A DNA stretch of 27,065 nt from the IMG/VR virus record IMGVR_UViG_3300024264_000144, positions 1 through 27,065 of that record; one strand, 5' to 3'. The translations under genes were made by a program, and so were the position numbers. The notes beneath the pieces were generated by a model. That model was not told where the DNA came from and ran no database searches. It saw nothing but the letters and a program-made list of their open reading frames with translations. Shown in pieces: positions 14,378 through 27,065 of the stretch. Every line of letters starts with the position of its first letter. Positions within the stretch are counted from its first letter, which is position 1. This stretch comes from a virus (Duplodnaviria; Caudoviricetes).

Positions 14378-14754
14378 ACTGTAATCTCTGGAACTACGTT
14401 AAATTTTCCTTCGAGTATTCTAGTAACAACTCCAGAAGGAGATTGTATTTCGAGATCATATTTAAGAGAACCAGGAGGTATAGCAGAAGTATTAGCTGCA
14501 GCAATTAGTAGCCTAACGTTTCCGTTAGCTCCATCTTCGCTGTCTTCTACCGAACCATTTAATATACAGTGACCATTTGAGGTAGCATTACTATGTAAAT
14601 CTACTATAAGATCTCCCCCACTATACTCACGAACGTGCATCCTAACTAAGTAGTTGTTAAGACTTACCGCTGTACCAGTGGAATCTTTATAGGTTATGAT
14701 TTTATCAAAAGTAGCTCCTTGCTCACAAGTGAAATTATACTTTCCTGCTGACAT
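14374..14754 (-). CDS. T5 p132-like / BppU-N-like fibre collar (attachment) protein
   Basis: 126 aa with pattern QGATF...YDLEI...RILEGKFNVVPEIT, resembling the C-terminus of T5 p132 as I recall it. Sits directly upstream of the fibre gene. Confidence 0.65.
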   Translation of the reverse strand: MSAGKYNFTCEQGATFDKIITYKDSTGTAVSLNNYLVRMHVREYSGGDLIVDLHSNATSNGHCILNGSVEDSEDGANGNVRLLIAAANTSAIPPGSLKYDLEIQSPSGVVTRILEGKFNVVPEITV

Positions 14755-15210
14755 TTATTTTTTGTCTCCTAGCAGATCCTTCATCAAGGAATCGTAGTTA
14801 TTATTGATTTGTACGGCTACTCCAGTATCGCGCTTTGGTCGTGCTGAGGTTTCCATATCATTAAGAAGCTTCATCCAATCAAGTAAATCTTTCTTAGAAT
14901 AGACACCTGACTCAAAAGCTTCCTGTAGTTTTTCGTCGATAACTTTGTTTATAACTGTTAATCGCTTTTGGCGATTTAAGTAGCCTTGGCTTAAATAAAC
15001 GTTATCCACGTAAGATTTAACTTCTTTATTCTCAATAATACTGGTTACTTGGTCCATTGTCAATGAGTGATTTTTAGCTATTTCATCAATGCTCTGACCG
15101 GCTAGAAAATCATTTGCGACAAGTAGATATGTAGGATCAAGCGCTGGAGCAGCGAGTGATTCGTTTAATTGGTCACTGTAAGTAACAGGTATGTTTGGTT
15201 TATCATTCAT
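14755..15210 (-). CDS. terS: T5-type terminase small subunit
   Basis: N-terminal HTH (SIDEIAKNHSLTMDQV), then EVKSYVDNVYLSQGYLNRQKRLTVINKVIDEKLQE and a C-terminal VQINNNYDSLM. This matches the pattern of T5-family TerS as recalled. Confidence 0.75.
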   Translation of the reverse strand: MNDKPNIPVTYSDQLNESLAAPALDPTYLLVANDFLAGQSIDEIAKNHSLTMDQVTSIIENKEVKSYVDNVYLSQGYLNRQKRLTVINKVIDEKLQEAFESGVYSKKDLLDWMKLLNDMETSARPKRDTGVAVQINNNYDSLMKDLLGDKK

Positions 15211-15561
15211 TTATAAGTCTTCTTTTGGTTTTTCCCAAGGCTGTTCGCCTGACCATGCTTGGAAGTTTCGTACTGGTGCTAACAAACACATTGTTTTGTC
15301 AGGAAACATAATTGTAATGCTAGTTGTTTTAGTATCTAAGTTAGTCCAAACGTACAATCCAGCTTTAAAAAACTGTTTTGTGTTAGCTTCACGAATAAGA
15401 CTATCTCCAGTAAAGATTAGACGCTCATCTACTTTACGAAGCACCTCAAATACGTCTATAACATTGTTGCAAGGAAGCATAGTTGTCATAGTTTTTTCTT
15501 GACCTAAAGCATAACTAGCTGTAGATAAGAATAGTGCAGTAATTAAAAATATATTTTTCAT
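15211..15561 (-). CDS. Hypothetical exported protein
   Basis: Signal-peptide-like N-terminus (MKNIFLITALFLSTASYA) and two Cys; tightly packed in the operon. Confidence 0.7.
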   Translation of the reverse strand: MKNIFLITALFLSTASYALGQEKTMTTMLPCNNVIDVFEVLRKVDERLIFTGDSLIREANTKQFFKAGLYVWTNLDTKTTSITIMFPDKTMCLLAPVRNFQAWSGEQPWEKPKEDL

Positions 15562-16031
15562 AATTCACTCTCATAAGTTATAGTGAAGATCATATCAGCG
15601 ACTCCATAAGGAGACATAACACCTTCGTCAGTGCTAAGTTGTAATAGTCTTACATCAATTAAACAATCTACACGGTTTTTTAAATTATTGAGTACATGCT
15701 CTATATCATCTAATAAAGCTTCTGCCCACCAGGTAGAATCTTCATCTTCTCCTAAGTCTTCATGTACATAGCCTCTAAGATTAAAAGTAGCAGTTTTATA
15801 TCTAATACCTGCTTCAGCTTCTCTAAAGGCTTCTTCTACTATATAGAAGCAGATTGTAGGAAAATCGTTAAGCTCATATAAAAACTTATAACTTGGAAAA
15901 CAATTTTCATGGCAATCTGTATTAAAAGTATACTGTTTAGGGCCTGGAAGATGAGCTGTTTGAATAGAGGTGCCTCCATCAATAGTTCTTAGCTCTTCTG
16001 TTAAGCTTCTAAGTAGGGTTAACTTGTTCAT
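15558..16031 (-). CDS. T5 p142-like tail tube terminator protein
   Basis: YKFLYELNDFPTI and STDEGVMSPYGVADMIFTITY resemble the T5 p142 motifs as recalled; 157 aa size is consistent. Confidence 0.7.
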   Translation of the reverse strand: MNKLTLLRSLTEELRTIDGGTSIQTAHLPGPKQYTFNTDCHENCFPSYKFLYELNDFPTICFYIVEEAFREAEAGIRYKTATFNLRGYVHEDLGEDEDSTWWAEALLDDIEHVLNNLKNRVDCLIDVRLLQLSTDEGVMSPYGVADMIFTITYESEL

Positions 16032-16372
16032 TCGGCTGCTACAGGCTTTGTACCAAATGTTCTGTTATAGCCTGGATCTTCATCATATGCGCCTGCCCAT
16101 TTATTCTCAGTAAAAGCTGCAAACTCTACAAGAGCGTCTAAGTCAAAAAATATATCAGATATCCATCCCTCAAGTTCTACTGTTTTAGCTTTTAAATCTG
16201 CTAAGTCACGAGCCATAGTAATTTCTTCTTCTACAGCCATACGACTAGTTAACTGAGATACTTGCTCACTTAGTTGTTCTATTGTTTGTGCTTGTTGAGC
16301 TGTCCACCATACAAAACCACTAACTTGTAGCACTATTGCAACAACAACTCCTATACTAAACTTTGTGTTCAT
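16028..16372 (-). CDS. Membrane-anchored coiled-coil protein
   Basis: N-terminal transmembrane segment (IGVVVAIVLQVSGFVWW) followed by heptads. Confidence 0.65.
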   Translation of the reverse strand: MNTKFSIGVVVAIVLQVSGFVWWTAQQAQTIEQLSEQVSQLTSRMAVEEEITMARDLADLKAKTVELEGWISDIFFDLDALVEFAAFTENKWAGAYDEDPGYNRTFGTKPVAAE

Positions 16373-16589
16373 TTTTATACTCCATTTCAGTTATAACCTC
16401 ATTGCCTTCACGATCGTTTGCAATACCTGCAGCTAAACTTTGTATTTGCTCTACTATGTGGTTACATTTTTGTGCATCATAGCTGCAGTGTGCATCTTCA
16501 GAAAATTGGTTACGCAATCTATGTACTTGCACCGCTAAGTCATGCATAACATTTATTCGTTGGATAACACTTTCTATGCTATGTCTCAT
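16356..16589 (-). CDS. Hypothetical protein
   Basis: GAGGAG RBS; overlaps its neighbours in the operon. Confidence 0.65.
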   Translation of the reverse strand: MRHSIESVIQRINVMHDLAVQVHRLRNQFSEDAHCSYDAQKCNHIVEQIQSLAAGIANDREGNEVITEMEYKNEHKV

Positions 16590-16767
16590 GCTTACTCCTC
16601 AAATGTTTTTTATACGCTTCTTCAAATCCATCTTCATGATAACAAAGCTCGTGATTACCCCACATACGTTTAAAGTACCCACTATAACAGTCTCTCATAG
16701 TTTTAGGATCAGTTATATGACCTTTTACCATATAAAATAGTCTAGCTACTTCTTTATCAGTCATCAC
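16579..16767 (-). CDS. Hypothetical protein
   Basis: GAGGAG RBS; operon packing. Confidence 0.65.
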   Translation of the reverse strand: MMTDKEVARLFYMVKGHITDPKTMRDCYSGYFKRMWGNHELCYHEDGFEEAYKKHLRSKHET

Positions 16768-16939
16768 TTATCTCCTCGCTTGAATCTCTATAACGTAGCT
16801 TAGGAGTATCATACTTACATCTTTCACTGCAGTACCATATGTATCCTTTACTAGCTACTCCACAAAATACATCGTAGGCACGATGATCACCATTGCTAAG
16901 GGGTTCAAAAGCCATATGAGTAGCACTGCACCTGTTCAT
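16757..16939 (-). CDS. Hypothetical Cys-rich small protein
   Basis: ATGA overlap with the upstream gene; YCSERC motif. Confidence 0.5.
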   Translation of the reverse strand: MNRCSATHMAFEPLSNGDHRAYDVFCGVASKGYIWYCSERCKYDTPKLRYRDSSEEISDD

Positions 16940-17214
16940 GAAACCACGGACAGTTCGTAGGTTTCCATAACTTGATTTGTTTGAGAAGAAGCAACGCTGT
17001 GAGCCTGTTCTTCACTTTCTGCAGTAAAGTAAAGTACTTTACCTATTCTTGTATCTACTACACAATCAAAGCCTATACTTGCAAGAGCGCGAGAGGTTGC
17101 CATGCCTGCATTGTCAAGAATTCCAGGATGTAAGTTTATAATAGCACAGTACTTTTTCATAGCCCTAAGCTCCACATCCATACAGGTATAACCACAAAGT
17201 GTAGTGCTACGCAT
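16936..17214 (-). CDS. Hypothetical protein, possibly PurS-like; true start probably the internal MKKY
   Basis: INLHPGILDNAG...ALASIGF...RIGKV...NQVMETY resembles the PurS pattern (L+xGVLDPQG...L..LGF...RxGK...NPVIExY) from memory. A GGAG lies upstream of MKKY. Confidence 0.5.
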   Translation of the reverse strand: MRSTTLCGYTCMDVELRAMKKYCAIINLHPGILDNAGMATSRALASIGFDCVVDTRIGKVLYFTAESEEQAHSVASSQTNQVMETYELSVVS

Positions 17215-17256
17215 AAAAATATCATTAACTTAACAGTTAACATATTATTATTTTTG

Positions 17257-18012
17257 TTAGTCATTTATCAGTCTTTCTATAGCATTAACATATCCAGGCA
17301 TAGAGTGATCACTTATAGAGTCAAAACGTCCGGCAGCTAGTCCAAGACCTATGCCACGTATACGATCCCATGCTCTTGATAATCCTCGTATGCTACGTTG
17401 CTTACCGCAAGAACTTATATACTGCTCATTTCCATCATGACGATAACCCATTATCCATAAAGGTACGCGTGTTACAACGTCATTATTATTAACCCAACGA
17501 CTATGTGTAACACTCAAAGAACAACAAAAAGCTGCATTGCCTACGCGAGGAGAGCCATAAGTATAAAGTTCTCTTACCTCTGGTAACATTATATCATCTT
17601 GACAACGAGATGCCAAGATTGTTGCCATTGCCGCTCCTAGTGAATGTCCACAAAACCATACTCTACGGTTGCCTGCTGCTTTCAAATGTGGTAATATCAA
17701 AGAATATAAATCATCACACTCTTGTTTAAAACCTCGGTGTACTCGACCTACTGTTTCTGCCGCAGTCATAGCTGCTTTAAGATCAGCACTAACATCGTTC
17801 CATTCGCCTGGCTCTGTTCCACGACACGCAATTACTAAATCATGTTTGCTTGAAAAGCAATAGGCTTGTGCACCGTCACGATCTAAAAAAGTTATATCGT
17901 TAAAACCTAACTGTTGGCCTCTTCTACGGGCAGGGGTTTCATCTCTGTAAGAAGTGTTTGATAGTCTTGCAAATAACAAACTCTTTTCTAAGAAGGATAA
18001 TTCTTCAATCAT
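17257..18012 (-). CDS. Class 3 lipase (alpha/beta hydrolase)
   Basis: Motifs IACRGTE, VHRGF, GHSLGAAMA nucleophile elbow, YTYGSPRVGN, NNDVVTRVP and C-terminal DHSM..Y. AAGGAG RBS. Confidence 0.92.
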   Translation of the reverse strand: MIEELSFLEKSLLFARLSNTSYRDETPARRRGQQLGFNDITFLDRDGAQAYCFSSKHDLVIACRGTEPGEWNDVSADLKAAMTAAETVGRVHRGFKQECDDLYSLILPHLKAAGNRRVWFCGHSLGAAMATILASRCQDDIMLPEVRELYTYGSPRVGNAAFCCSLSVTHSRWVNNNDVVTRVPLWIMGYRHDGNEQYISSCGKQRSIRGLSRAWDRIRGIGLGLAAGRFDSISDHSMPGYVNAIERLIND

Positions 18013-18231
18013 AGTAAGACTCCTTTACAAAATTAATTGTATATAGCATAAAGTTATCATAGTATTTGTACTATGTCCAACTCTTTTAACGAAAATTCAA
18101 AAAATTACTGGGGGAACGCGTGCGGGTGTGCGCAGCGCACGCATAGGTTGTAATGTGCCAAAACCGCCCTACCATAGGTTGCAAAAATAAGAAAACTACA
18201 GTTTTTTTTAAAAACGGCAGTTTTTCCGGCC

Positions 18232-18552
18232 CTATACGGGCCGATATGGTTTTGCGATACCGGCGGCGGCTGCCTTGCAATATTTTGCCCAATATGCGCG
18301 GCGGCTTTCTATTTCGGCGCGGGCTTCGCTATAAGGTGCATAGGCGCGAAAAACTACGTTTGCAGTTCCTTGCACCTTATTGCAAACATCGCACAAGCGC
18401 ACAAAATTTTCTAAAACCATTGCGCCGCCATTGGCTTCTGAAACTAAATGACCCGCTTCGCGAGCATCCCAAGTGCCGCAAGCTGCGCAGCAGTTAAAAC
18501 GCGCGAAAACTTCGTTGCGGATTTTTGCGGGGATTCTTGATTTTTTAGCCAT
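18232..18552 (-). CDS. HNH endonuclease
   Basis: CAACG...GHLVSEANGG...NFVRLCDVCNKVQG; AGGAG RBS and its own promoter. Confidence 0.8.
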   Translation of the reverse strand: MAKKSRIPAKIRNEVFARFNCCAACGTWDAREAGHLVSEANGGAMVLENFVRLCDVCNKVQGTANVVFRAYAPYSEARAEIESRRAYWAKYCKAAAAGIAKPYRPV

Positions 18553-18577
18553 CTGATTTTCTCCTATCTATAATAAG

Positions 18578-18606
18578 AATATACATACCGCGGCGGATAA
18601 ATACAA
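18578..18606 (-). promoter_or_regulatory. Sigma70-type promoter for the HNH gene
   Basis: TTGTAT-N17-TATATT on the minus strand. Confidence 0.6.
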
Positions 18607-18649
18607 GAGAAAAAAGGACTTTTTTTAAAAAAAATTTGTTTTGCTTTAA

Positions 18650-18662
18650 AATCAATAGGTTA
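18650..18662 (+). promoter_or_regulatory. Single IHF-consensus box between divergent promoters
   Basis: AATCAATAGGTTA matches WATCAANNNNTTR exactly. Confidence 0.55.
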
Positions 18663-18694
18663 GCAGATTTTTACAAAAAAAGCTGGATATGGGC

Positions 18695-18722
18695 TTGAAA
18701 CCCGCGAAAATATGCTTATATT
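18695..18722 (+). promoter_or_regulatory. Sigma70-type promoter
   Basis: TTGAAA-N16-TATATT. Confidence 0.5.
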
Positions 18723-18752
18723 AATATTATGACATTTACGAAAGGATTTAAA

Positions 18753-18986
18753 ATGTTTGGATATATTGTTCGCGAAACCGAAAAAGCTGTTGCCTTTGTT
18801 CAAGAGGGCAAATTTGCGGGCGTCGAAGTCAAGGCGCTATGGGTTCCACGGTCTAAAATCAATTCTATGGTTGAGCGCGATAGCTATTCGCCAAGCATCC
18901 AGCTTGCCGGTGAAAAAATCCGCCGCTTTGGAATTCCAACGGATCTTGAAATTGATCCAGCATTTTTAGAAAAGATTGGGGTTTAA
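18753..18986 (+). CDS. Hypothetical protein
   Basis: AAAGGA RBS precedes the ATG at 18753, in frame with the track start at 18729. Contains RETEKAV...WVPRS. Confidence 0.7.
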   Translation: MFGYIVRETEKAVAFVQEGKFAGVEVKALWVPRSKINSMVERDSYSPSIQLAGEKIRRFGIPTDLEIDPAFLEKIGV

Positions 18987-18987
18987 T

Positions 18988-19125
18988 ATGAAAATCGCAA
19001 AGCGTAAACCCCAAACACCGCAGCCCGTAAAAAGGGCTGACGGTTCATGGTTTGTTCCATCTCGCCGTTGTTCGTCAACAATCAACAATAAAATTTCTAG
19101 CAGCTTCAAAGGGGTTAAAAAATGA
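18988..19125 (+). CDS. Small basic hypothetical protein (45 aa)
   Basis: MKIAKRKPQTPQPVKRADGSWFVPSRRC...; starts 1 nt after the previous stop and overlaps the next ORF by ATGA. Confidence 0.5.
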   Translation: MKIAKRKPQTPQPVKRADGSWFVPSRRCSSTINNKISSSFKGVKK

Positions 19126-19247
19126 CCGATCTAGATATTATAAAGTATCACCTGGCTACAAAAGAGTTTTGGTTAGGTATAGTTGTAACTCTACTAGGTA
19201 CGCTTGCAATATGGGTAGCAGTACAACTTGCAGCTGAGTTCTTGTAA
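19122..19247 (+). CDS. Small membrane protein (41 aa)
   Basis: MTDLDIIKYHLATKEFWLGIVVTLLGTLAIWVAVQLAAEFL; AAAGGGG RBS; one transmembrane segment. Confidence 0.6.
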   Translation: MTDLDIIKYHLATKEFWLGIVVTLLGTLAIWVAVQLAAEFL

Positions 19248-19258
19248 AAAGCGTGCAA

Positions 19259-19306
19259 AATCAATAGCTTAGCGGCAGGGCCGCCCCGCCCGCTAAGTAG
19301 TTGATT
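19259..19306. repeat. 48-bp element, copy 1
   Basis: AATCAATAGCTTA-22 bp GC-rich-TAAGTAGTTGATT. Confidence 0.9.
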
Positions 19307-19325
19307 TTAAACAGTTTTTTTAGGG

Positions 19326-19356
19326 TTGCAAAGCAATTAAAACTATGCGATAAACT
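19326..19356 (+). promoter_or_regulatory. Putative promoter
   Basis: TTGCAA-N17-GATAAA, or TAAACT with a 19-nt spacer. Confidence 0.45.
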
Positions 19357-19384
19357 TATATAAGATAACAAAGGAGAAAATCTT

Positions 19385-19870
19385 ATGACTACATTTTACA
19401 CCGCTGGAAAAGTTTGGCACAATAAAAAATTTCAAAATCTGCGTGATGATCTAGGATACGCTGTAAAAGCTCGCTGGATTGACCTAGAAAATGACAGTGA
19501 TTTTGTGCAAAATCAAAAAGATCAGCTCTGGAATTTGTGCTATGAAGATGTTCGGGATAGTGATTTCTTGCTGCTATATTGTGAAGATTTTAACGAAGAA
19601 CAGCGCGGAGCGTTGGTTGAAATTGGAATGGCTTATGGTTGTGGTAAACCAGTGTATGCGATAGGTAAGTGTGCAAGCATTGCTCCTAATGCAATCTCTG
19701 ATGTTGCTTTCACCCATTTTAAAAACTGGACATGGTTAGAAACCACTGATCTAGTAGAAGGTGCGGATCAAGCTATTGCTATGCACGAAGGAAAGCAAAA
19801 GGCCCAGCGCCTTGTGAGTATGTTTAAAGATTTTAGAACTGTTGGAACAGTACAATCGGAGGTTGCATAA
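19385..19870 (+). CDS. Nucleoside 2-deoxyribosyltransferase / N-glycosidase family protein
   Basis: FYTAGK...EDVRDSDFLLLY...GALVEIGMAYGCGKPVY, including the catalytic Glu motif; AAGGAG RBS. Confidence 0.8.
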   Translation: MTTFYTAGKVWHNKKFQNLRDDLGYAVKARWIDLENDSDFVQNQKDQLWNLCYEDVRDSDFLLLYCEDFNEEQRGALVEIGMAYGCGKPVYAIGKCASIAPNAISDVAFTHFKNWTWLETTDLVEGADQAIAMHEGKQKAQRLVSMFKDFRTVGTVQSEVA

Positions 19871-20161
19871 ATGCCTTATATTCCCGTAGAAGATCGTTCA
19901 CGCGTTGATGAAGCTGTAATGGATCAAGGGTGCCAATGGGTACCCAACAACGCCGGAGAACTAAACTGGCTAGTATCTAGCTTTATAAATAATTTTTTAG
20001 AGGTGCATGGTGTACGTTATGCGTATCTAAATGAAATGATGGGCGCGCTAGAGTGTTGCAAATTAGAACTCTATAGAAAAGTAGGGGCGCCTTATGAGGA
20101 AATAAAAGAAGCTGAAAATGGTAAAGCATATTCAGTTGAAATGCAAGGGGCAGATTACTAA
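19871..20161 (+). CDS. Conserved phage helical protein (DUF6899-like)
   Basis: MPYI..R...GELNW...Y..LNEMMGALECCKLELYRK...PYE..K..ENG pattern; GGAGG RBS. Confidence 0.7.
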   Translation: MPYIPVEDRSRVDEAVMDQGCQWVPNNAGELNWLVSSFINNFLEVHGVRYAYLNEMMGALECCKLELYRKVGAPYEEIKEAENGKAYSVEMQGADY

Positions 20162-20186
20162 CGCCCAGCGCCTAATAACCCTTTAA

Positions 20187-20234
20187 TATCAAAGGGTTAG
20201 AGGGCGCGGCCCCCCGCGCGCTAAGTGGTTGATT
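20187..20234. repeat. 48-bp element, copy 2
   Basis: TATCAAAGGGTTA-22 bp-TAAGTGGTTGATT. Confidence 0.9.
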
Positions 20235-20253
20235 TTAAACACTTTTTTAGTGC

Positions 20254-20282
20254 TTGACGCTAACAGAATAAAAGCGTATGGT
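20254..20282 (+). promoter_or_regulatory. Sigma70-type promoter
   Basis: TTGACG-N17-TATGGT. Confidence 0.65.
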
Positions 20283-20310
20283 TTCTTATAGTCAATTAAA
20301 AGGAGTACTC

Positions 20311-20637
20311 ATGGCTACTAAAACTTTAAATTATACTACCGCACAAGTTGATCAAATTATCAGCATGTACAAGCAATCAGGTAACGAATCTCTTCCAGAG
20401 ATTGCTGCAGCTGTCGGTAAGTCAGTGCGTTCTGTACGTTCTAAACTAGTACGCGAAGGCGTATACTCGGCTACCCCTAAGCCGAAACGGTCTTCAATTG
20501 ATAAAGGACCTACTAAAAAAGAACTACTTAATGAGCTCGAGCAGGTGTGTGGTTTTGATGTCACACCTCTGTCTGGTGCCACTAAAGAGGGGTTGCTTTC
20601 GCTAATCTCTTTTGCTAAAAAAATGGGAGAAGCTTAG
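20311..20637 (+). CDS. A2: T5 A2-like DNA-binding protein, paralog 1
   Basis: LPEIAAAVGKSVRSVRSKLVREGVY resembles the T5 A2 segment LKEIAKAVG...SVRSKL as recalled. AAGGAG RBS supports the start at 20311. Confidence 0.7.
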   Translation: MATKTLNYTTAQVDQIISMYKQSGNESLPEIAAAVGKSVRSVRSKLVREGVYSATPKPKRSSIDKGPTKKELLNELEQVCGFDVTPLSGATKEGLLSLISFAKKMGEA

Positions 20638-20667
20638 GCTTCCCCACCACCCTTTTAGGAGATATTT

Positions 20668-20835
20668 ATGTCTGTAAAAACTGCTATATGTTACGATGAG
20701 TGCGGCACGGAAGTTTCTATCCAAGTCGAAGGGCATCACCAGATACCCGAAGAATGGCGGTTCTGTTACTGGCAAGAGTTCAGCGATCGGGAGCTTGCTG
20801 AGTGGAGGCTAGAGCAGGAGCAAGACTGGCCCTAG
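20668..20835 (+). CDS. Small acidic hypothetical protein (55 aa)
   Basis: MSVKTAICYDECGTEVSIQVEGHHQIPEEWRFCYWQEFSDRELAEWRLEQEQDWP; AGGAG RBS. Confidence 0.65.
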   Translation: MSVKTAICYDECGTEVSIQVEGHHQIPEEWRFCYWQEFSDRELAEWRLEQEQDWP

Positions 20836-20855
20836 CCTCCAAAAAAACCCTTTAA

Positions 20856-20984
20856 TATCAAAGGGTTAGCCGCACCGCCAAAAAAGTGTGTAATATCAAG
20901 GGGTTAGCAGGGGGGTCGCCCCGCTCGCTAAGTTATTGATTTTAAAGGGTTTTTTAATTCAAATAAAATGCTAAGTCATTGAAA
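20856..20984. repeat. 48-bp element, copy 3 (core 20894-20941), with extra boxes at 20856-20868 and 20972-20984
   Basis: TATCAAGGGGTTA-22 bp-TAAGTTATTGATT; flanking boxes TATCAAAGGGTTA and TAAGTCATTGAAA. Confidence 0.9.
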
Positions 20985-21002
20985 ACAAACGATTCTTTTA
21001 TA

Positions 21003-21031
21003 TTGACTTGAGCTGATTTATTCTTTATAAG
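21003..21031 (+). promoter_or_regulatory. Sigma70-type promoter
   Basis: TTGACT-N17-TATAAG. Confidence 0.65.
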
Positions 21032-21054
21032 TTATATACAAGGAGAATTTACTA

Positions 21055-21510
21055 ATGATTAAAAATATTTCTATCTTTGATTTAGACGGAACCTGTGTTG
21101 ATAGCTCGCATCGGCAAGCTACTCTTTCAGATGGTACGCTAAACTTGGCGGCTTGGTTTGCCAACGCTACGCCTGAAAAGATAGCTCAAGATAAGCTGCT
21201 TCCTTTAGCTAAGGAAATCAGCAACCGTAAAGATAAGGGTGACTATGTTATAATCTGCACTGCTAGAAATATGTCTAGCGCAGATTATGAATTCTTAAAA
21301 AAGAATAACATGGTTGCTCACAAGATTATTTCTCGCCCTGTGGGAAATATGGAAGCAGACGGATCACTTAAGGCGAAACAGCTTTCATCCTTTTTAAGCC
21401 TCCGCCAGTTTAAAAGAGCTTCAAAAGTGATGTTTGATGACGCGCAAAGTGTCCGTTCTGCTATCCGAAAAATTGGTATTGCGGTACTAGATCCCGCAAA
21501 ACTCAACTAG
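21055..21510 (+). CDS. HAD-superfamily phosphatase (PNKP phosphatase-like)
   Basis: Motif I IFDLDGT, motif II ICTAR, motif III Lys (LKAK), motif IV MFDD. Confidence 0.85.
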   Translation: MIKNISIFDLDGTCVDSSHRQATLSDGTLNLAAWFANATPEKIAQDKLLPLAKEISNRKDKGDYVIICTARNMSSADYEFLKKNNMVAHKIISRPVGNMEADGSLKAKQLSSFLSLRQFKRASKVMFDDAQSVRSAIRKIGIAVLDPAKLN

Positions 21511-21518
21511 AGGTTGTT

Positions 21519-21800
21519 ATGGAATATACTCACGAATTAATGTTAGAATGTCACGAAAAACGCATGGGAGGAAATATGCGACACTTAATGATAACACGGC
21601 CAGATGGTGGCATCTGTGATTGCTACGGAGAGATCGAAGAGAATAGCAATTTTGAAGTCGTATGCTACGACGAAGAAAATGATGGAATTTGGGCGACGGG
21701 AAACCATGACACCAATGAACCATTTAAAGATTGGCAAGAAGCTGTTAAATGGCTATGCGAAAACCTTGACTCACGGATTGAACAGCTAACCGCTGTTTAA
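21519..21800 (+). CDS. Acidic hypothetical protein
   Basis: GAGG RBS; ends immediately before element copy 4. Confidence 0.65.
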   Translation: MEYTHELMLECHEKRMGGNMRHLMITRPDGGICDCYGEIEENSNFEVVCYDEENDGIWATGNHDTNEPFKDWQEAVKWLCENLDSRIEQLTAV

Positions 21801-21808
21801 TCCTTTAA

Positions 21809-21899
21809 AAACAAGCACTTACGGGCAAGGGCGCCCCGGCGGCTAAGTCATTGATTTTAAACGATTTTTAAATTGAAAAAAAATGCTAAGTCCTTGTTT
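21809..21899. repeat. 48-bp element, copy 4 (core 21809-21856), plus extra box at 21887-21899
   Basis: AAACAAGCACTTA-22 bp-TAAGTCATTGATT; extra box TAAGTCCTTGTTT. Confidence 0.9.
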
Positions 21900-21917
21900 T
21901 TAAACGATTCTTTTCTC

Positions 21918-21946
21918 TTGCATTCTGCTTATTTTAAAGCTATAAA
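21918..21946 (+). promoter_or_regulatory. Sigma70-type promoter
   Basis: TTGCAT-N17-TATAAA. Confidence 0.65.
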
Positions 21947-21981
21947 TATTATATTAACCCTCAAACAAAAGGAGGCCAATT

Positions 21982-22305
21982 ATGGCTACATCTAAAACTG
22001 CAAATTACACCACCGCTCAAGTCGAGCAAATCGTTTCTATGTATGCTGATCTCGGAAACGAAGGTCTGCAAGATATCTCTGACGCCGTGGGCAAATCTGT
22101 CCGGTCAGTTCGTTCGAAACTCGTGCGTGAGGGTGTTTATGTCGCCACCCCTAAAGCCGCTGCACCTAAGCGGGATCAAGGCCCAACCAAAAAAGAGCTG
22201 TTAAATCAGCTTGAAGAAATGGTTGGTTTTGATGTTACTCCACTTTCGGGGTCAACCAAAGAAGGTTTGCAATCTCTGATTGCATTCGCCTCTAAGGTGG
22301 CATAA
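21982..22305 (+). CDS. A2: T5 A2-like DNA-binding protein, paralog 2
   Basis: NYTTAQV...LQDISDAVGKSVRSVRSKLVREGVY...GPTKKELL...GFDVT; AAGGAGG RBS. Confidence 0.7.
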   Translation: MATSKTANYTTAQVEQIVSMYADLGNEGLQDISDAVGKSVRSVRSKLVREGVYVATPKAAAPKRDQGPTKKELLNQLEEMVGFDVTPLSGSTKEGLQSLIAFASKVA

Positions 22306-22312
22306 ACCAGAG

Positions 22313-22341
22313 GGGGCAAGGTTGCAGCCTTGCCCCTTTTT
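22313..22341 (+). terminator. Rho-independent terminator
   Basis: GGGGCAAGG-TTGCAG-CCTTGCCCC followed by TTTTT. Confidence 0.8.
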
Positions 22342-22366
22342 ACTTGACACTGAAAAAAGTGTTTGA

Positions 22367-22458
22367 AAACAAACACTTACGGGGCGGGGCCCCCCGCGAG
22401 CTAAGTCATTGAAAACAAACGGTTTTTTAGTTAGCAGAAAAAGGCTAAGTCCTTGTTT
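22367..22458. repeat. 48-bp element, copy 5 (core 22367-22414), plus extra box at 22446-22458
   Basis: AAACAAACACTTA-22 bp-TAAGTCATTGAAA; extra box TAAGTCCTTGTTT. Confidence 0.9.
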
Positions 22459-22476
22459 TTAAACGATTCTTTTTAT

Positions 22477-22505
22477 TTGACAGCTGAATGTTTTTGCTTT
22501 ACACC
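22477..22505 (+). promoter_or_regulatory. Sigma70-type promoter
   Basis: TTGACA-N17-TACACC. Confidence 0.55.
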
Positions 22506-22537
22506 TATAAGGGTAAAGCATACAGGAGAATTTACAA

Positions 22538-23242
22538 ATGCCTTTCAAACCTACTCTTTTCGTTGTGACCGACATTGAAACCACCATGCGTAAGCGTATT
22601 GCTTTTGATGTTGCTTGGCGCATTGTTGACCGAAAAGGTCGGGAATACGGTTCTGGCTCTTATGTTATTCGTGAAGCCTTCAAGCTTGATCTGCCTTTCT
22701 TCGCTGAAAAAATGGGTCATTATTTTGATGATGCTTATAGCCACAAAATTGTGCCTGCCTCTATTGATGACGTTCGCGCAGAATACAACGCGCAAATTAA
22801 TGCGCTTGCTGCTGCTGGTCATAAAGTCATTTTATGCGCTTATAATGCGCGTTTTGATTTTACGCATCTGCCGCGCACTTTGCAAGTTTTGCATAATGAC
22901 GACTCTGCGCGTTGGTTAGATAATGCTTTTCCGCTGCTCGATATTTGGGATTTCTGGGGTCAAAGCGTTCCTCTTAATTATCGCGCCAACCCTTCAAAGT
23001 CTGGCAAATACTTTTCAACGTCTGCGGAAAGCGCCTACCGTTGGGAATTCATGCAAGAAGATTTTGAAGAAAGACATATTGCGTGGCATGATTGCTTGAT
23101 TGAAAGCGACATTTTGCTTAAAGCATTGCATCGCAAAAAGCCTATGCCTATAGTCTCCAAGCCTTCGGAATTTTCGGGATCAGTCTGGAGAGATATCAAT
23201 CTGAGACTAGGCGTTGACGGTTCTCAGGCTCTTGCGGCATAA
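22538..23242 (+). CDS. DEDDh 3'-5' exonuclease family protein
   Basis: ExoI VTDIETT, ExoII AYNARFD, ExoIII HIAWHD; AGGAG RBS. Confidence 0.85.
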   Translation: MPFKPTLFVVTDIETTMRKRIAFDVAWRIVDRKGREYGSGSYVIREAFKLDLPFFAEKMGHYFDDAYSHKIVPASIDDVRAEYNAQINALAAAGHKVILCAYNARFDFTHLPRTLQVLHNDDSARWLDNAFPLLDIWDFWGQSVPLNYRANPSKSGKYFSTSAESAYRWEFMQEDFEERHIAWHDCLIESDILLKALHRKKPMPIVSKPSEFSGSVWRDINLRLGVDGSQALAA

Positions 23243-23249
23243 TTAAACT

Positions 23250-23272
23250 GGGGCTTGCAAAACGCAAGCCCC
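23250..23272 (+). terminator. GC-rich hairpin after the exonuclease gene (no U-tract)
   Basis: GGGGCTTGC-AAAAC-GCAAGCCCC. Confidence 0.45.
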
Positions 23273-23293
23273 CCACAACCCGAGGTTGAAAAA

Positions 23294-23404
23294 ATGGCTA
23301 AAATTAAACTTGCGCTTCCTTATATACTAAAGGCTTATATCGTTTACTCTGTTATATCCGAAACGGTAGTTTTAAGCGGGCTTATATACTTAATTTTCTT
23401 TTAA
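23294..23404 (+). CDS. Small membrane protein (36 aa)
   Basis: MAKIKLALPYILKAYIVYSVISETVVLSGLIYLIFF; GAGG RBS; stop abuts element copy 6. Confidence 0.6.
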   Translation: MAKIKLALPYILKAYIVYSVISETVVLSGLIYLIFF

Positions 23405-23452
23405 TATCAAGGGGTTAGGCGGCGGGGCCCCCAACCTGCTAAACTACTGAAA
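23405..23452. repeat. 48-bp element, copy 6
   Basis: TATCAAGGGGTTA-22 bp-TAAACTACTGAAA (degenerate right box). Confidence 0.85.
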
Positions 23453-23471
23453 ACAAACACTTTTTTTACTA

Positions 23472-23500
23472 TTGAAGATATATTTTAAAACTGATACTAA
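23472..23500 (+). promoter_or_regulatory. Sigma70-type promoter
   Basis: TTGAAG-N17-TACTAA. Confidence 0.5.
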
Positions 23501-23517
23501 TAATTAAAGGAGAAAAC

Positions 23518-23727
23518 ATGGCTAGAAGAGTTGAATGGAAAGCTATCGGCAAATGTAAAGTTTGTGGCATAAATTTATATGCTGAGAGAGATAATAAACC
23601 TCATAAGATTGCTATGCCTTGCAATCTAGGAGGTTGCCCTTATGAAACACCAGAACAGCAGCAAAGCGCTGATGAATTTTGGAGATCACTACCACCAGCA
23701 GGAAAAGGAGTAACTTATTATGAATAA
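23518..23727 (+). CDS. Small putative Zn-binding protein
   Basis: CKVC...PCNLGGCP; AAGGAG RBS. Confidence 0.7.
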   Translation: MARRVEWKAIGKCKVCGINLYAERDNKPHKIAMPCNLGGCPYETPEQQQSADEFWRSLPPAGKGVTYYE

Positions 23728-23929
23728 ACATTCAAACACATATAAAGAATGGTTTGCAGAAATCGATCGGATCTTAGAACGTTCTATAGGCTTAGGGCAA
23801 GACTGCCTAGCAGACTGGCTAAGTCGAGATGCGTATAATGATGGGCTTAGTGCAGAGGAAGGCGCAGCTATTTGCCTAGAAGCTCAAGATTTAATGAATG
23901 ATGATGAGATATCAGAATTATTGAGTTAA
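23720..23929 (+). CDS. Acidic hypothetical protein
   Basis: AAGGAG RBS; DCLADWLSRDAYNDGLSAEE; stop overlaps element copy 7. Confidence 0.7.
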   Translation: MNKHSNTYKEWFAEIDRILERSIGLGQDCLADWLSRDAYNDGLSAEEGAAICLEAQDLMNDDEISELLS

Positions 23930-23976
23930 ATCAGGGGCTTAGGCCCCGACGCGCCCGGGCTCCTAACTTATTGATT
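23929..23976. repeat. 48-bp element, copy 7
   Basis: AATCAGGGGCTTA-22 bp-TAACTTATTGATT. Confidence 0.85.
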
Positions 23977-24038
23977 TCATTGATCTTTTTCTCTCTTGAC
24001 ACAACTTAAAATTGAATTAGGCGCCCTTAGCGCCGCCT

Positions 24039-24067
24039 ATAGTAGTAGTTCAACTACCCGAGTGCAA
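24039..24067 (-). promoter_or_regulatory. Leftward sigma70-type promoter
   Basis: TTGCAC-N17-TACTAT on the minus strand, with the palindrome GTAGTTCAACTAC in its spacer. Confidence 0.55.
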
Positions 24068-24203
24068 GTAGAAAAACAATTTATAATGTACTCAAAGCTA
24101 AGTCTACTTTAACTTTAGCACCAGGCCAAGTAGTAGTTCAACTATCAAATTTCGTGGGCCCTAGTAGGCATTCGAAGTAATTATTTAATAGCCTAGCGCC
24201 ACT

Positions 24204-24233
24204 ATTATAGTGGAAAAACTATAGCGTTGTCAA
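24204..24233 (-). promoter_or_regulatory. Leftward consensus sigma70 promoter
   Basis: TTGACA-N18-TATAAT on the minus strand. Confidence 0.65.
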
Positions 24234-24319
24234 GCGCAAATTAGCCGTGGCCGCTCATCAAAGTCAAGTCACATAAAAAAATAGAGAGCAGCATAGAAGT
24301 AGATTGTTCATGTTTCTTC

Positions 24320-24348
24320 TTGCTTACTTGCTGTTTTTATCGTATATT
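24320..24348 (+). promoter_or_regulatory. Sigma70-type promoter for A2 paralog 3
   Basis: TTGCTT-N17-TATATT. Confidence 0.55.
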
Positions 24349-24419
24349 GATTATGTTGATGAGGGAAATGAGCGCCTCGAACCAGCTCAGAAGCCAATTA
24401 TATAGAAAGAGGTTCAAAT

Positions 24420-24737
24420 ATGGCTAATACTACAGTAAACTACACAGACGCACAAGTAGAAATGATCGTTGAAATGTACAACGGGCTCGGCAATGACGGT
24501 CTTGATGAGATCGCAGCTGCTGTTAGCAAGTCAGTACGGTCGGTACGGTCAAAGTTGGTGCGTGAAGGTGTTTATGTTGCTACACCTAAAGCCAAGGCAG
24601 CTCCAAAAGATATGGGTCCTTCGAAGAAGGAACTGTTGAATGACTTGGAGCAAATTGTAGGCTTTGATGTCACCGGCTTCACCGGTGCTACTAAGCCTGC
24701 GCTGGCTACGCTTATTGAAAAGCTGCAAGCTGCTTAA
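24420..24737 (+). CDS. A2: T5 A2-like DNA-binding protein, paralog 3
   Basis: NYTDAQV...LDEIAAAVSKSVRSVRSKLVREGVY...GPSKKELL...GFDVT; GAGG RBS. Confidence 0.7.
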   Translation: MANTTVNYTDAQVEMIVEMYNGLGNDGLDEIAAAVSKSVRSVRSKLVREGVYVATPKAKAAPKDMGPSKKELLNDLEQIVGFDVTGFTGATKPALATLIEKLQAA

Positions 24738-24759
24738 GCGTTACGCAACATGAACACAC

Positions 24760-24788
24760 AGGGGGCCTTCGGGCCCCCTTATCTTTTA
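24760..24788 (+). terminator. Terminator-like hairpin with UUCG tetraloop
   Basis: AGGGGGCC-TTCG-GGCCCCCT followed by a T-rich tail. Confidence 0.7.
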
Positions 24789-24810
24789 ATGGCTAAAAAA
24801 AGGAACAATC

Positions 24811-25227
24811 ATGCAAGGTTTGATCGAATCTGATAATTATATTAAATGTAATCACTGCAATTATGCTCATACTTATGGTCAACGTCTAGATACAGGTTAT
24901 GACGTTGTGTGTCCTAACTGTGAGTCTGATGCATCTACTGAAGATCTAGAAGACGAAGAAAAGTACTATTGGTGGAGTGTTGGTATATATTCAACAGGCG
25001 AGAACTACGGAGGCCCCGAAGAGGGCGGTTGGTGGTACACTGCAGGCAACCTAGAACATCATGATAAAGTTCGTAGCTTTTATTCACTAAAACAAGCTCA
25101 AGAATACGCTGTAGAACTACGTAAATGGGTAACAGAGTATAATGGTGGTCAAGATTATGCAATAAAAGGGTTTACAGAACAGTTTCCTGATGATGGATTC
25201 CCTAAAGTAAGACCCCGTTACTGCTAA
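24811..25227 (+). CDS. Hypothetical protein with Zn-ribbon and YGGPEEGGWWY motif
   Basis: CNHC...CPNC followed by YGGPEEGGWWY, a motif I recognise from phage hypothetical proteins; AAGGA RBS. Confidence 0.75.
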   Translation: MQGLIESDNYIKCNHCNYAHTYGQRLDTGYDVVCPNCESDASTEDLEDEEKYYWWSVGIYSTGENYGGPEEGGWWYTAGNLEHHDKVRSFYSLKQAQEYAVELRKWVTEYNGGQDYAIKGFTEQFPDDGFPKVRPRYC

Positions 25228-25234
25228 AAACGAG

Positions 25235-25264
25235 AAAAGGAGCCCTTTTGAGGCTCCTTTTTTT
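25235..25264. terminator. Rho-independent terminator, possibly bidirectional
   Basis: AAAAGGAGCC-CTTTTGA-GGCTCCTTTTTTT, located where rightward and leftward gene blocks converge. Confidence 0.8.
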
Positions 25265-25586
25265 ATTTAATATTAAAAACTAGTAAAAATCGGTAAAAAA
25301 GCTTGCGCTTCACGAAAAATACCAGAAAAATTGAAATAATACTTGCTTGGCAAAATAATTGAATAATTCTAGTTAAAAATCAACGTCTTTCTCTGGTAGT
25401 ATTAAAATAATAATAACTAGAAAAAAGACAGAGCTTTCCCACCTAATAAGTTATACGGAGAAAAAATGAAAGCTAACCCCCTAACGAAATCTTCGTTTCG
25501 AACAGTCTGCCTTACCCCGCGTAAACGTCGTGCAGTCTCCCCGTATGAGATCGTTGTCTCTAGCCTGAAGCTGCTTAAGTTGCCTA

Positions 25587-25622
25587 AGAATCTTTAGAAT
25601 TACCTTAGAATCTTTAGAATTA
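25587..25622. repeat. Direct repeat AGAATCTTTAGAATTA x2 (period 20)
   Basis: Copies at 25587-25602 and 25607-25622. Confidence 0.85.
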
Positions 25623-25625
25623 GGG

Positions 25626-25688
25626 TTATATACCTAAGATTGTAAGCATTAATAGTAAAACTATATAAATAATCCATTCTGTATTCAT
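25626..25688 (-). CDS. Putative 20-aa hydrophobic peptide
   Basis: MNTEWIIYIVLLLMLTILGI; candidate promoter TTGACT-N16-TAATAT at 25706-25733; weak RBS. Confidence 0.35.
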   Translation of the reverse strand: MNTEWIIYIVLLLMLTILGI

Positions 25689-25862
25689 TATTAACTCATG
25701 TAACTATATTAGCATAATTTGCATTAAAGTCAAGTAGTCATTGAGCGATAAGCTTCATAGTTTTAATTTTCAGCATTGAGAATATGAAAATTAAGCACTT
25801 TGGATTAATTGTATATAGGTAAACGATATACATTTAATCGCTCAATGACAGGCTAGACTTAG

Positions 25863-25982
25863 TTAATCTACATGCTCATATGCTAGCGTTAACCAATGCT
25901 TTGCTACATCTTGAACTAAATAAAGAGCACAGCAACAGGCAATAATAGCTATAGCAGTAGTATAGTTGTTAGGCAGATTCAT
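25863..25982 (-). CDS. Small hydrophobic protein (39 aa)
   Basis: MNLPNNYTTAIAIIACCCALYLVQDVAKHWLTLAYEHVD; AAGGAG RBS; overlaps the upstream stop. Confidence 0.55.
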   Translation of the reverse strand: MNLPNNYTTAIAIIACCCALYLVQDVAKHWLTLAYEHVD

Positions 25983-26202
25983 TAAAAACTCCTTCTAGTG
26001 ATTGACTTAGTAGATAATCAATAGCGTCTAGCCTACCTTGTGCTGCAGCCATTGAATCTAACTGATGTTGAATGCTTTGTGCAATATCTGAATGCTCACC
26101 AATACCAGTACTTGAATTTAAATAGATGTTTACATTAAGAGCTGCAACATCTAGTTCTGATTTGGCATGATTTCTAAGTGTGTTAAGTATTTGTGTGTTC
26201 AA
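25969..26202 (-). CDS. Conserved phage hypothetical protein (GIGEHSDI motif)
   Basis: TTG start with GAGGAG RBS; NVNIYL...GIGEHSDI motif that I recognise from marine phages. Confidence 0.7.
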   Translation of the reverse strand: MNTQILNTLRNHAKSELDVAALNVNIYLNSSTGIGEHSDIAQSIQHQLDSMAAAQGRLDAIDYLLSQSLEGVFNESA

Positions 26203-26533
26203 TGCGTTTCTCCTCTGGTGTAAAAATGTCTACAATGCTACGTCTAATAACTTGATCATTAATGCAATATCCTCGTGTATGCGTTTTAGAAACTGCATCA
26301 TAGTCACAGTCAGGTTTAGGATGTATATTGTGAATTTCATGACGCTGCGGGTCAAACGCTTGTCCACGATCGTCATAACTTGTTAATCCACGGCTTTGCA
26401 GTGCCTGAGCTATAGCCTCTACAGTAGCACGATAAGTTGCATTATCATAATATTCTAACAATGCAATTAATTCATCTAGTGCGGGTAACAGCTCCTGGAT
26501 CAAATCTGCTGTATCTGATGTTAAGTTTTTCAT
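26183..26533 (-). CDS. grpE: GrpE-like nucleotide exchange factor, N-terminally truncated
   Basis: ELLPALD...RGL...GQAFDPQRHE...RGYCINDQVIRRSIVDI follows the GrpE signature (LLPVLD...G.xFDP..HEA...GY.L.DRVLRPA.V). GGAG precedes the ATG at 26533. Confidence 0.75.
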   Translation of the reverse strand: MKNLTSDTADLIQELLPALDELIALLEYYDNATYRATVEAIAQALQSRGLTSYDDRGQAFDPQRHEIHNIHPKPDCDYDAVSKTHTRGYCINDQVIRRSIVDIFTPEEKRIEHTNT

Positions 26534-26987
26534 ATCTATCTTCTCCAAGTTGTGGAAGTTTTGCCAGTTCGGTTTGAGTAACTATTACTGCTCGTCCCTT
26601 ACTTTCCATCCAGTTAGTTAGTGTATCATAATCCATACCATCGAGCAAGTCTGTTTTAACTGTTTTTAGTGGGTGTGGATGTTCTACAGAGAAAAAACGT
26701 TTTGAGTTTGCATGGCGAAGATCACAAGTTTTGCGGTGTGTGCTTTGACGATTAGAGATGTATAGCGCTTGTGCCTCTTCAGTCCAAAGCAAACACCATT
26801 GAATACAACTTCCAGTATTATTATGAACACGAGTAGTTTCTGAACTTAGAATATCGCTCGCTGCACGGAGTGCACGATCTACCATCTGCAATTTATAGCT
26901 ACGTCTAAGAGGTTGTTGAGCGCAGTACCAAGCTATTTGAAGTAGAGTAGTATATTGCGCTCTCCAGCAATCAAGATGTGCGCTCAT
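26472..26987 (-). CDS. Hypothetical protein, possible remote His-Me-finger-like fold
   Basis: 171 aa with pattern VEHPHP...VIVTQTELAKL...RY...I; overlaps the grpE-like gene by 62 nt. Confidence 0.55.
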   Translation of the reverse strand: MSAHLDCWRAQYTTLLQIAWYCAQQPLRRSYKLQMVDRALRAASDILSSETTRVHNNTGSCIQWCLLWTEEAQALYISNRQSTHRKTCDLRHANSKRFFSVEHPHPLKTVKTDLLDGMDYDTLTNWMESKGRAVIVTQTELAKLPQLGEDRYEKLNIRYSRFDPGAVTRTR

Positions 26988-26988
26988 A

Positions 26989-27063
26989 CTAAAACCACTC
27001 TTCTGGATGTGCGCTTATAGCGTGTAAGCGTTGTGCACGTTGTGCAGCGTGTTCAGAAACGAT
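26989..27063 (-). CDS. 3' end of a gene entering from the right
   Basis: Open frame ...IVSEHAAQRAQRLHAISAHPEEWF* ending 1 nt before the next ATG. Confidence 0.35.
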   Translation of the reverse strand: MVSEHAAQRAQRLHAISAHPEEWF

Positions 27064-27065
27064 AG

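Follow-up and report, generated by a model that had tools for sequence, protein, structure and literature searches.

The stretch of DNA examined in this study (the window; 27,065 nucleotides, positions 1 to 27,065 of IMG/VR virus record IMGVR_UViG_3300024264_000144, Caudoviricetes) is, judging from its sequence, a fragment of an uncultured marine T5-like (Demerecviridae-related) phage. It contains seven copies of a module in which two inverted arms of the type bound by the host protein IHF (integration host factor) flank a GC-rich spacer of 22 bp. The modules separate cassettes of small rightward genes, and they lie, together with additional single arms of the same type, at the following positions.

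19245-19320: module 1 (core 19259-19306), composed of arm, 22-bp GC core and inverted arm; -35-like TTGCAA at 19326
20173-20248: module 2 (core 20187-20234), ahead of the first A2-like gene; -35 box TTGACG at 20254
20842-20868, + strand: extra forward IHF-type arm, upstream of module 3
20880-20955: module 3 (core 20894-20941)
20972-20998, - strand: third (reverse) arm after module 3; -35 box TTGACT at 21003
21795-21870: module 4 (core 21809-21856), with the centre GGCGCC
21887-21913, - strand: third (reverse) arm after module 4; -35 box TTGCAT at 21918
22353-22428: module 5 (core 22367-22414)
22446-22472, - strand: third (reverse) arm after module 5; -35 box TTGACA at 22477
23391-23466: module 6 (core 23405-23452); -35-like TTGAAG at 23472
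23915-23990: module 7 (core 23929-23976); TTGACA at 23996, with no recognisable -10 box at 17 nt

An earlier note on this DNA had placed seven elements with 22-bp GC-rich spacers at these core positions, and all seven were confirmed. Every spacer is 22 bp long and 86-95% GC, and the pattern WAWCAR-N4-TTA-N22-TAA-N4-YTGWTW is matched exactly by five elements and with one mismatch by the other two, compared to a mean of 0.09 elements expected (maximum 2) in 100 shuffles of the window. Exact WATCAANNNNTTR boxes are also concentrated here, with 11 of the window's 15 falling within 18650-23976. Read from the outside towards the core, the full arm consists of an A-tract, 8 bp and WATCAR-N4-TTA, which together make up a full IHF-type site; because the A-tract sits 8 bp outside each box, the module measures approximately 76 bp, more than its 48-bp core. 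A gap of 8 bp between A-tract and box is also that of the lambda H' site. The IHF consensus core WATCARNNNNTTR is matched exactly in 10 of the 14 paired arms and with one mismatch in the remaining four, while 5-6 A in the six positions from -14 to -9 are found in 10 of the 14; the A-tract is present on all seven right arms and on all three extra reverse arms. Five arms of this type are unpaired, at 18650 (+) and 20856 (+) and as the reverse arms ending at 20984, 21899 and 22458. As summarised in the passages of PMC8421141 drawn on here, IHF recognises the consensus WATCARNNNNTTR, gains affinity from a left A-tract, occupies a 35-bp site and bends DNA by 160 degrees through kinks 9 bp apart. 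By consensus and by left-side A-tract the arms are IHF-type sites, as the earlier note had proposed for the boxes, with the A-tract where a full site has one; binding and bending by IHF are predicted. Two other regulators were considered and rejected. The FNR box has the form TTGAT-N4-ATCAA, and the corresponding halves in the window occur in the opposite order and 36 bp apart, a spacing that does not fit; the CtrA box also misfits in spacing. Distances between successive modules are irregular, ranging from 524 to 1038 bp and tracking the size of the cassettes.

At all seven modules a TTG-type -35 box lies 18-19 nt past the last reverse arm, the distance being counted from the third arm where one is present (modules 3-5). 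In those three modules the promoter is further from the pair, and the third arm restores the distance of 18-19 nt. Among related phages, TTG is found 17-20 nt to the right of the right arm in 213 of 347 elements, compared to 31 of 347 to the left of the pair; downstream control windows in the same comparison gave 9-69. Promoter-like sequences were called for 248 of 400 non-duplicate elements. Of these, 136 lie at 18-20 nt and 24 at shorter distances, and the 88 that are more than 23 nt away cluster at 27-30, 38-39, 48-49, 61-62 and 71-74 nt. Phasing at 10.4 bp gives mean cosines of 0.67 and 0.49, values reached by none of 5000 uniform draws. The distance from arm to -35 box in relatives is 18-20 nt, or 18-20 nt plus whole helical turns, and the IHF-type site thus stands in helical register with the -35 box. 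A face-of-helix register is the prediction for an IHF bend acting on RNA polymerase, and transcription from these promoters is predicted to be IHF-dependent. The -10 boxes are mostly non-consensus. Activating each promoter was among the roles suggested in the earlier note, and a promoter role is supported by the -35 boxes in register.

The modules are embedded in, and surrounded by, the following genes and features.

14755-15210, - strand: terminase small subunit (terS), Demerecviridae type
18232-18552, - strand: small protein of the HNH family, marking the left edge of the block and a candidate for binding the core
18300-25050, approximate: probable terminal repeat and pre-early block, from contig depth, contig breaks, T5-like gene order and inference
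18650-18662, + strand: single IHF-type box without an A-tract, inside the divergent-promoter gap
19385-20161, + strand: cassette of a nucleoside 2-deoxyribosyltransferase-like gene (below the Pfam cut-off) and a DUF6899 gene
20311-20637, + strand: T5 A2-like DNA-binding protein, copy 1
21055-21800, + strand: cassette of a HAD/PNKP-type phosphatase and an unknown 93-aa gene
21982-22305, + strand: T5 A2-like protein, copy 2
22538-23242, + strand: likely exonuclease (one 27% match annotated as exodeoxyribonuclease; no Pfam match)
23518-23929, + strand: cassette of an unknown 69-aa gene and a DUF5419 gene
24420-24737, + strand: T5 A2-like protein, copy 3, which has a promoter of its own and no module next to it

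The T5-like markers in the window are the Demerecviridae-type terS, a tail terminator and three proteins homologous to A2 of T5, which align with it at an hhalign probability of 95.7; two of the three A2-like genes lie directly behind modules. The A2-like protein had no match among 50,697 phage records, so that no close cultured relative was identified, and DNA matches to phage records were limited to short pieces of at most 75 bp. Sequencing runs holding at least half of the sampled words were all marine or seawater (14 of 24 rows), one of them being a possible source. In RNA run X15, contigs cover 21974-22308 and 24290-24755; transcript starts, strand and level are not readable from contigs, and this coverage is not used as evidence. 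Compared to the late region, the block (18300-25100) is richer in GC (41.5% versus 37.2%) and in GCGC (5.9 versus 1.3 per kb) and poorer in CCWGG. It is bordered on the left by a class 3 lipase-like gene (17257-18012, - strand) and on the right by a GrpE-like gene (26183-26533, - strand).

Contig depth, which was read from assembled contigs only, rises across the block. In two RNA-library assemblies from one study, derived from a strain approximately 93-95% alike, it rises about twofold, from values near 11-12 outside to 20-45 within 18.3-25.0 kb, and in the only DNA assembly examined it is 49-61 outside and 77-113 inside the block, a 1.3-1.9 fold difference. Contig ends of close relatives scatter, with two starting at 18557-18560 and others elsewhere, and do not fix the repeat boundaries. 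From depth and T5-like gene order, the module block is, provisionally, probably a collapsed terminal repeat, and the module-bearing block is likely the region that enters the cell first. Near the left edge of the block, motifs of the form GAAC-N7-GAAC or GTTC-N7-GTTC occur in the window (19043), in L137 (6225-6369) and in L308 (991-1052), with arrays of up to 11 copies in relatives; these presumably resemble the alphaproteobacterial LexA box. Among relatives, only 30 of 122 -10 boxes starting with TA end in T. Boxes that rarely end in T are described as typical of Alphaproteobacteria in the text of PMC8407463 drawn on here, and the form of the -10 box suggests that the host may be an alphaproteobacterium. 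No gene for HU or IHF was found in nine records (a 173.5-kb complete relative and eight others; three are complete).

Five related contigs (47-78 kb) contain 39 matches to the pattern, and in each of the five these fall in a single block of 5-12 kb, while the reversed pattern has no match in the same contigs; in the 173.5-kb complete relative, matches occur only at 171-173 kb. The confinement to a terminal-repeat or pre-early region that the earlier note had suggested looking for was therefore found, in that matches in the window and its relatives are restricted to a single block, probably the terminal repeat. The strict form with GGCGCC had one match in a species-genome collection of 596 Gb and was found in 33 viral contigs, all belonging to the window's clade; 22 of these were also recovered in searches with A2, and the remaining 11 have genes of the block (A2-like, terS or others). 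The seven elements represent a real, clade-wide cis-element. A pattern scan of T5, Slocum, DLP6 and POP15 detected no inverted pair, and the single match in Ceto is AT-rich, looks like chance and was rejected. Cassette order varies between relatives at module boundaries; the exonuclease-like gene, for example, has moved in L133. Many forks of the A2 tree are open, and lineage claims are not based on it. In a relative with 54% GC (L484 / L491), 18 modules with near-identical CCCCGG cores are packed into 13.5 kb, many of them 330-400 bp apart.

Spacer length was surveyed at 116 loci found through A2, accepting spacers of 6-40 bp with at least 60% GC. The most common length among the 352 distinct elements was 22 bp (282 elements), followed by 20 bp (40), then 19, 21 or 23 bp (26), with four elements of other lengths. 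Orthologous elements in close relatives can be one base off, at 21 or 23 bp, and a sister lineage has spacers of 19-20 bp. In the 15 of 64 parts of the viral collection that were scanned, 114 distinct GC-rich pairs had 17 spacer lengths between 10 and 35 bp, usually constant to a base or two within a contig and in some cases with fully palindromic arms; the range in T5-like phages is 14-25 bp. The 22-bp spacing persists across lineages whose A2 proteins are only about 60% identical. Of the proposed invariance in spacer length, what stands is that all seven window elements have 22 bp; the length is 19-25 bp in relatives and 10-35 bp in other phages, and 22 bp is a rule of the clade and not universal.

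The spacer was also thought to be free in sequence, which was not borne out. Mean identity among the window spacers is 61%, compared to 42% when shuffled, and the centre is conserved. The central hexamer is GGCGCC in 133 of the 282 spacers of 22 bp and CCCGGG in 33 of the 40 spacers of 20 bp. In 119 dereplicated elements GGCGCC occurs at spacer position 9 in 40 and elsewhere in only three, and those with neither half of the hexamer perfect number seven compared to 15.5 expected. Conservation is uneven, being high in the boxes and in the six central bases and low between them. With lengths that vary by lineage and a conserved centre, the idea of a purely geometric constraint is not supported.

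The module is best read as a host-IHF promoter module that acts by activation or anti-silencing and also marks seams of gene shuffling. More specifically, and with a little more confidence than doubt, we propose from the sequence that each module is a double docking site for host IHF, which would fold the DNA upstream of a pre-early promoter and keep that promoter active on fresh phage DNA. Host IHF would bind both arms as the first DNA enters. The bend centre is placed at the first base of WATCAR, a position that we take from the IHF-H' structure; the two centres would then lie approximately 47 bp (4.5 turns) apart, so that the bends would oppose each other, giving the DNA an S-shaped path and exposing about 12 bp of the core. 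By this estimate, the two helical turns spanned by the spacer, to which the earlier note had pointed, would be the wrong measure. The nearer IHF site, centred near -55, may help RNA polymerase or keep a silencer away, in the manner of the early promoter Pe of phage Mu, where IHF bound upstream counteracts H-NS according to the part of PMC8501957 drawn on here (citing van Ulsen et al. 1996). The core would be read by a second partner beyond IHF, and, as a by-product, module repeats would serve as recombination seams for gene cassettes. The Mu promoter resembles the modules in that a site for host IHF immediately precedes an early promoter of the phage, with a proposed anti-silencing or activating role; however, it is a single promoter of a temperate phage, whereas an inverted pair with a conserved core is found here at seven promoters, with up to 18 modules in relatives.

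Promoter control of this kind is favoured by the inverted full-length IHF-type sites, the conserved GC core on the dyad, the -35 box in register and the confinement to one block. Several points weigh against it. One proximal site should suffice for a Mu-type effect, so that activation alone leaves the distal arm and the conserved core unexplained, and since spacer length differs among lineages, the phase between the two bends must differ too. In addition, T5 itself lacks the module and has pre-early promoters that are strong, and no -10 box can be recognised at module 7. The elements counted, being taken from related phages, are not independent observations, and the peak at 61-62 nt is partly due to third arms.

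There are several alternative explanations for the modules. One possibility, unlikely in our estimation, is that a pre-early nuclease encoded by the phage itself targets the core, which the two IHF bends would frame and license, and that nicking or cutting there ends pre-early transcription or starts recombination of the terminal repeats. In its fullest form, which we likewise regard as improbable, two IHF proteins would fold the pre-early promoter into an S, turn it on, and then present the palindrome to a small phage nuclease (HNH here, MvaI/BcnI-like in the sister lineage), thereby ending the pre-early phase or joining terminal repeats and replacing T5's A1. T5 A1 matched only itself among 7885 open reading frames from loci that included the window's 11982-27065 and close relatives. 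A partial precedent is the Type I-F CRISPR leader, as described in the portion of bioRxiv 10.1101/2023.05.26.542337 drawn on here, in which two IHF sites shape the DNA into a scaffold presenting motifs to an enzyme; it differs in being a single chromosomal locus with a known integrase. The centre of the core is a lineage-specific palindrome like a restriction site (GGCGCC or CCCGGG), and the window's HNH family is present in 18 of 20 loci with 22-bp spacers but in none of 11 with 20-bp spacers, while a MvaI/BcnI-family nuclease shows the reverse pattern (0 of 20 and 9 of 11, respectively), in some cases at the same leftward slot. BcnI recognises CCSGG and MvaI CCWGG, according to the text used from PMC3203586 and PMC3001055. 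Elements are found at 10 of the 11 loci with a MvaI-like gene, CCSGG is present in 53 of the 55 elements concerned, and in the phages with 20-bp spacers nearly all CCSGG sites lie within or beside modules. However, some lineages containing CCSGG have the HNH gene and no MvaI-like gene (L464, L473, L480 and L492), and L484 combines 22-bp spacers and a CCCCGG centre with neither gene in the 13.5 kb covered. Only one of the seven window cores has a perfect GGCGCC, neither GGCGCC nor GCGC is depleted outside modules (about a dozen sites outside the block in five contigs), and CCGG is avoided in all groups. Because several other genes are also split by spacer class, the association amounts to about one lineage swap. 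The combination of site avoidance and a nuclease tie fits the MvaI-like lineage and not the GGCGCC class of the window. MvaI/BcnI-family restriction-like nuclease genes lie in the pre-early block of marine T5-like phages L300 (2993-3622), L301, L305, L310, L388 and L155.

The earlier note had suggested that the incoming DNA is compacted, pulled in or shielded by the repeated paired bends. It is quite unlikely that they serve in this way independently of transcription, and nothing was found that favours such roles over promoter control. The modules are confined to the block that probably enters first, IHF is able to bend and bridge DNA (PMC8421141, in the passages used), and second-step transfer in T5 requires A2 according to the text used from bioRxiv 10.64898/2026.04.02.716235. 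These roles are nevertheless disfavoured because they need no helical register with the -35 box, and the polar, phased link to promoters would not be expected of them; moreover, module spacing is irregular and set by cassette size, and the two-step entry of T5 works without modules. The T5 injection stop signal, with its IRC-spacer-IRD repeats, is similar in having inverted repeats and a fixed-length spacer in the pre-early region, but as described in the portion of bioRxiv 10.1101/866236 drawn on here, those repeats carry DnaA boxes, have a 52-bp rather than a 22-bp spacer and occur twice. T5 itself has no match to the paired IHF pattern.

A further explanation, to which we assign a low probability, is that the ligand of the arms or of the core is a phage protein (most plausibly the three A2-like proteins) that controls the pre-early promoters by autoregulation, the likeness to IHF sites being incidental. 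Three A2 homologues lie inside the block, two of them directly behind modules, and all 33 contigs with the strict GGCGCC form belong to the A2-bearing clade. The predicted A2 fold is helical, with weak helix-turn-helix or Myb-like matches, none of them significant, and a fold search of the A2 model gave no match at E 0.001 or better. Against A2 as the ligand, the arms fit the bipartite host consensus in sequence as well as in spacing, phages without an A2 match (L468 and DLP6) have the same boxes, the conserved RSKLVREG stretch is common to lineages with different cores, and T5 has A2 and no modules. Relatives with A2 and no modules were also considered as an argument against A2; this argument was dropped because L314 shows loci centred on a distal A2 paralogue approximately 8 kb off the block, and none of the 15 loci covers terS.

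It is also very improbable that the modules are cassette repeats kept alike by recombination, with equal length reflecting common descent and only the promoter mattering. Such repeats are known as promoter-early stem-loops (PeSLs) in the T4-type phages RB49 and phi1, where, in the text drawn on from PMC2839356, they are repeated intergenic promoter cassettes of small early genes and act as shuffling points. Cassettes are indeed reordered or inserted at module boundaries, and spacer length and core are specific to each lineage. PeSLs are defined in the same text by a terminator stem-loop and consensus sigma-70 boxes, whereas the modules lack hairpin covariation, have mostly non-consensus -10 boxes and are defined by the IHF-type pair. 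The uneven conservation of boxes and central bases would not result from homogenisation alone, nor would homogenisation explain why 22 bp is kept across lineages with such divergent A2 proteins.

Finally, the reading of the element as a hairpin or cruciform of RNA or single-stranded DNA (a terminator or kissing loop), for which the arms are foldable on paper, the central hexamers are self-complementary and the 8-bp linkers show slightly higher complementarity than after permutation (0.409 versus 0.367; 3 of 1000), is largely refuted and extremely unlikely, given that complementarity does not exceed that of permuted pairs in the outer spacer (0.374 versus 0.404) or the N4 positions (0.374 versus 0.374), that real elements have no folding advantage over half-swapped controls as RNA or DNA, and that no Rfam match was found within modules. 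With neither covariation nor a folding advantage, the element is best read as double-stranded DNA.

The nearest published case to these IHF-type promoter modules appears to be the paired 'phage promoters' of Stenotrophomonas phage DLP6, which are similar in that five pairs of IHF-consensus boxes lie ahead of genes named in the paper, upstream of promoter-like sequences, in 50 kb of sequence (PMC5349666, in the portion drawn on here). Tandem IHF-consensus boxes were located in DLP6 (L298, KU682439.2) at 5310, 8053, 34439, 44008 and 47587, matching the published places of the paired promoters in five of five cases, and we infer that these boxes are the published motif; IHF is not mentioned in the text of that paper used here. 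Unlike the modules, the DLP6 boxes are direct repeats 25 bp apart, and no inverted pair occurs genome-wide. An inverted paired IHF module was not found in the literature (main text of open PubMed Central papers and bioRxiv). The module can be regarded as a variant of IHF-assisted early promoter cassettes, to which the present analysis adds the full-site anatomy, the phasing to the -35 box, the lineage-specific core and the T5-like setting.

The modules bear on the questions of how lytic phages transcribe the DNA that they inject first, at a time when no phage protein has been made, and of how this phase is brought to an end in T5-like phages. In the picture that the module suggests, nearly all pre-early promoters in a widespread group of marine and freshwater phages would depend on an architectural protein of the host. 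The modules also offer short pieces of DNA for testing, which come with natural core variants and with a phasing series already present (18, 28, 38 and 49 nt). In addition, because cellular genomes hardly ever contain the strict form, it could be used to flag these phages and the region of their terminal repeat.

Several additional features of the early region were noted. At 24204-24233, on the minus strand, a perfect TTGACA-18-TATAAT is directed leftwards into the early block and followed by a GC-rich stretch; in relatives, GGCGCC immediately after leftward -10 boxes was also seen. One lineage with 20-bp spacers (L300, L301 and L305) has a second conserved motif of approximately 35 bp between module and promoter. 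AT-rich triple IHF-like boxes with a 30-bp spacer were found in L002, L013, L015, L022, L030, L073 and L076 (contigs of up to 151 kb). The leader of A2-like copy 3 (24355-24395) is conserved, with counterparts in L309, L313, L318, L357 and others, and can form an H-type pseudoknot, one stem of which differs in sequence between relatives. In an alignment of 16 sequences, 78% of cells are paired compared to 72% when shuffled, and three pairs have changed on both sides; a +1 slide is equal in covariation score, and there is no Rfam match. This leader is a possible autoregulatory RNA.

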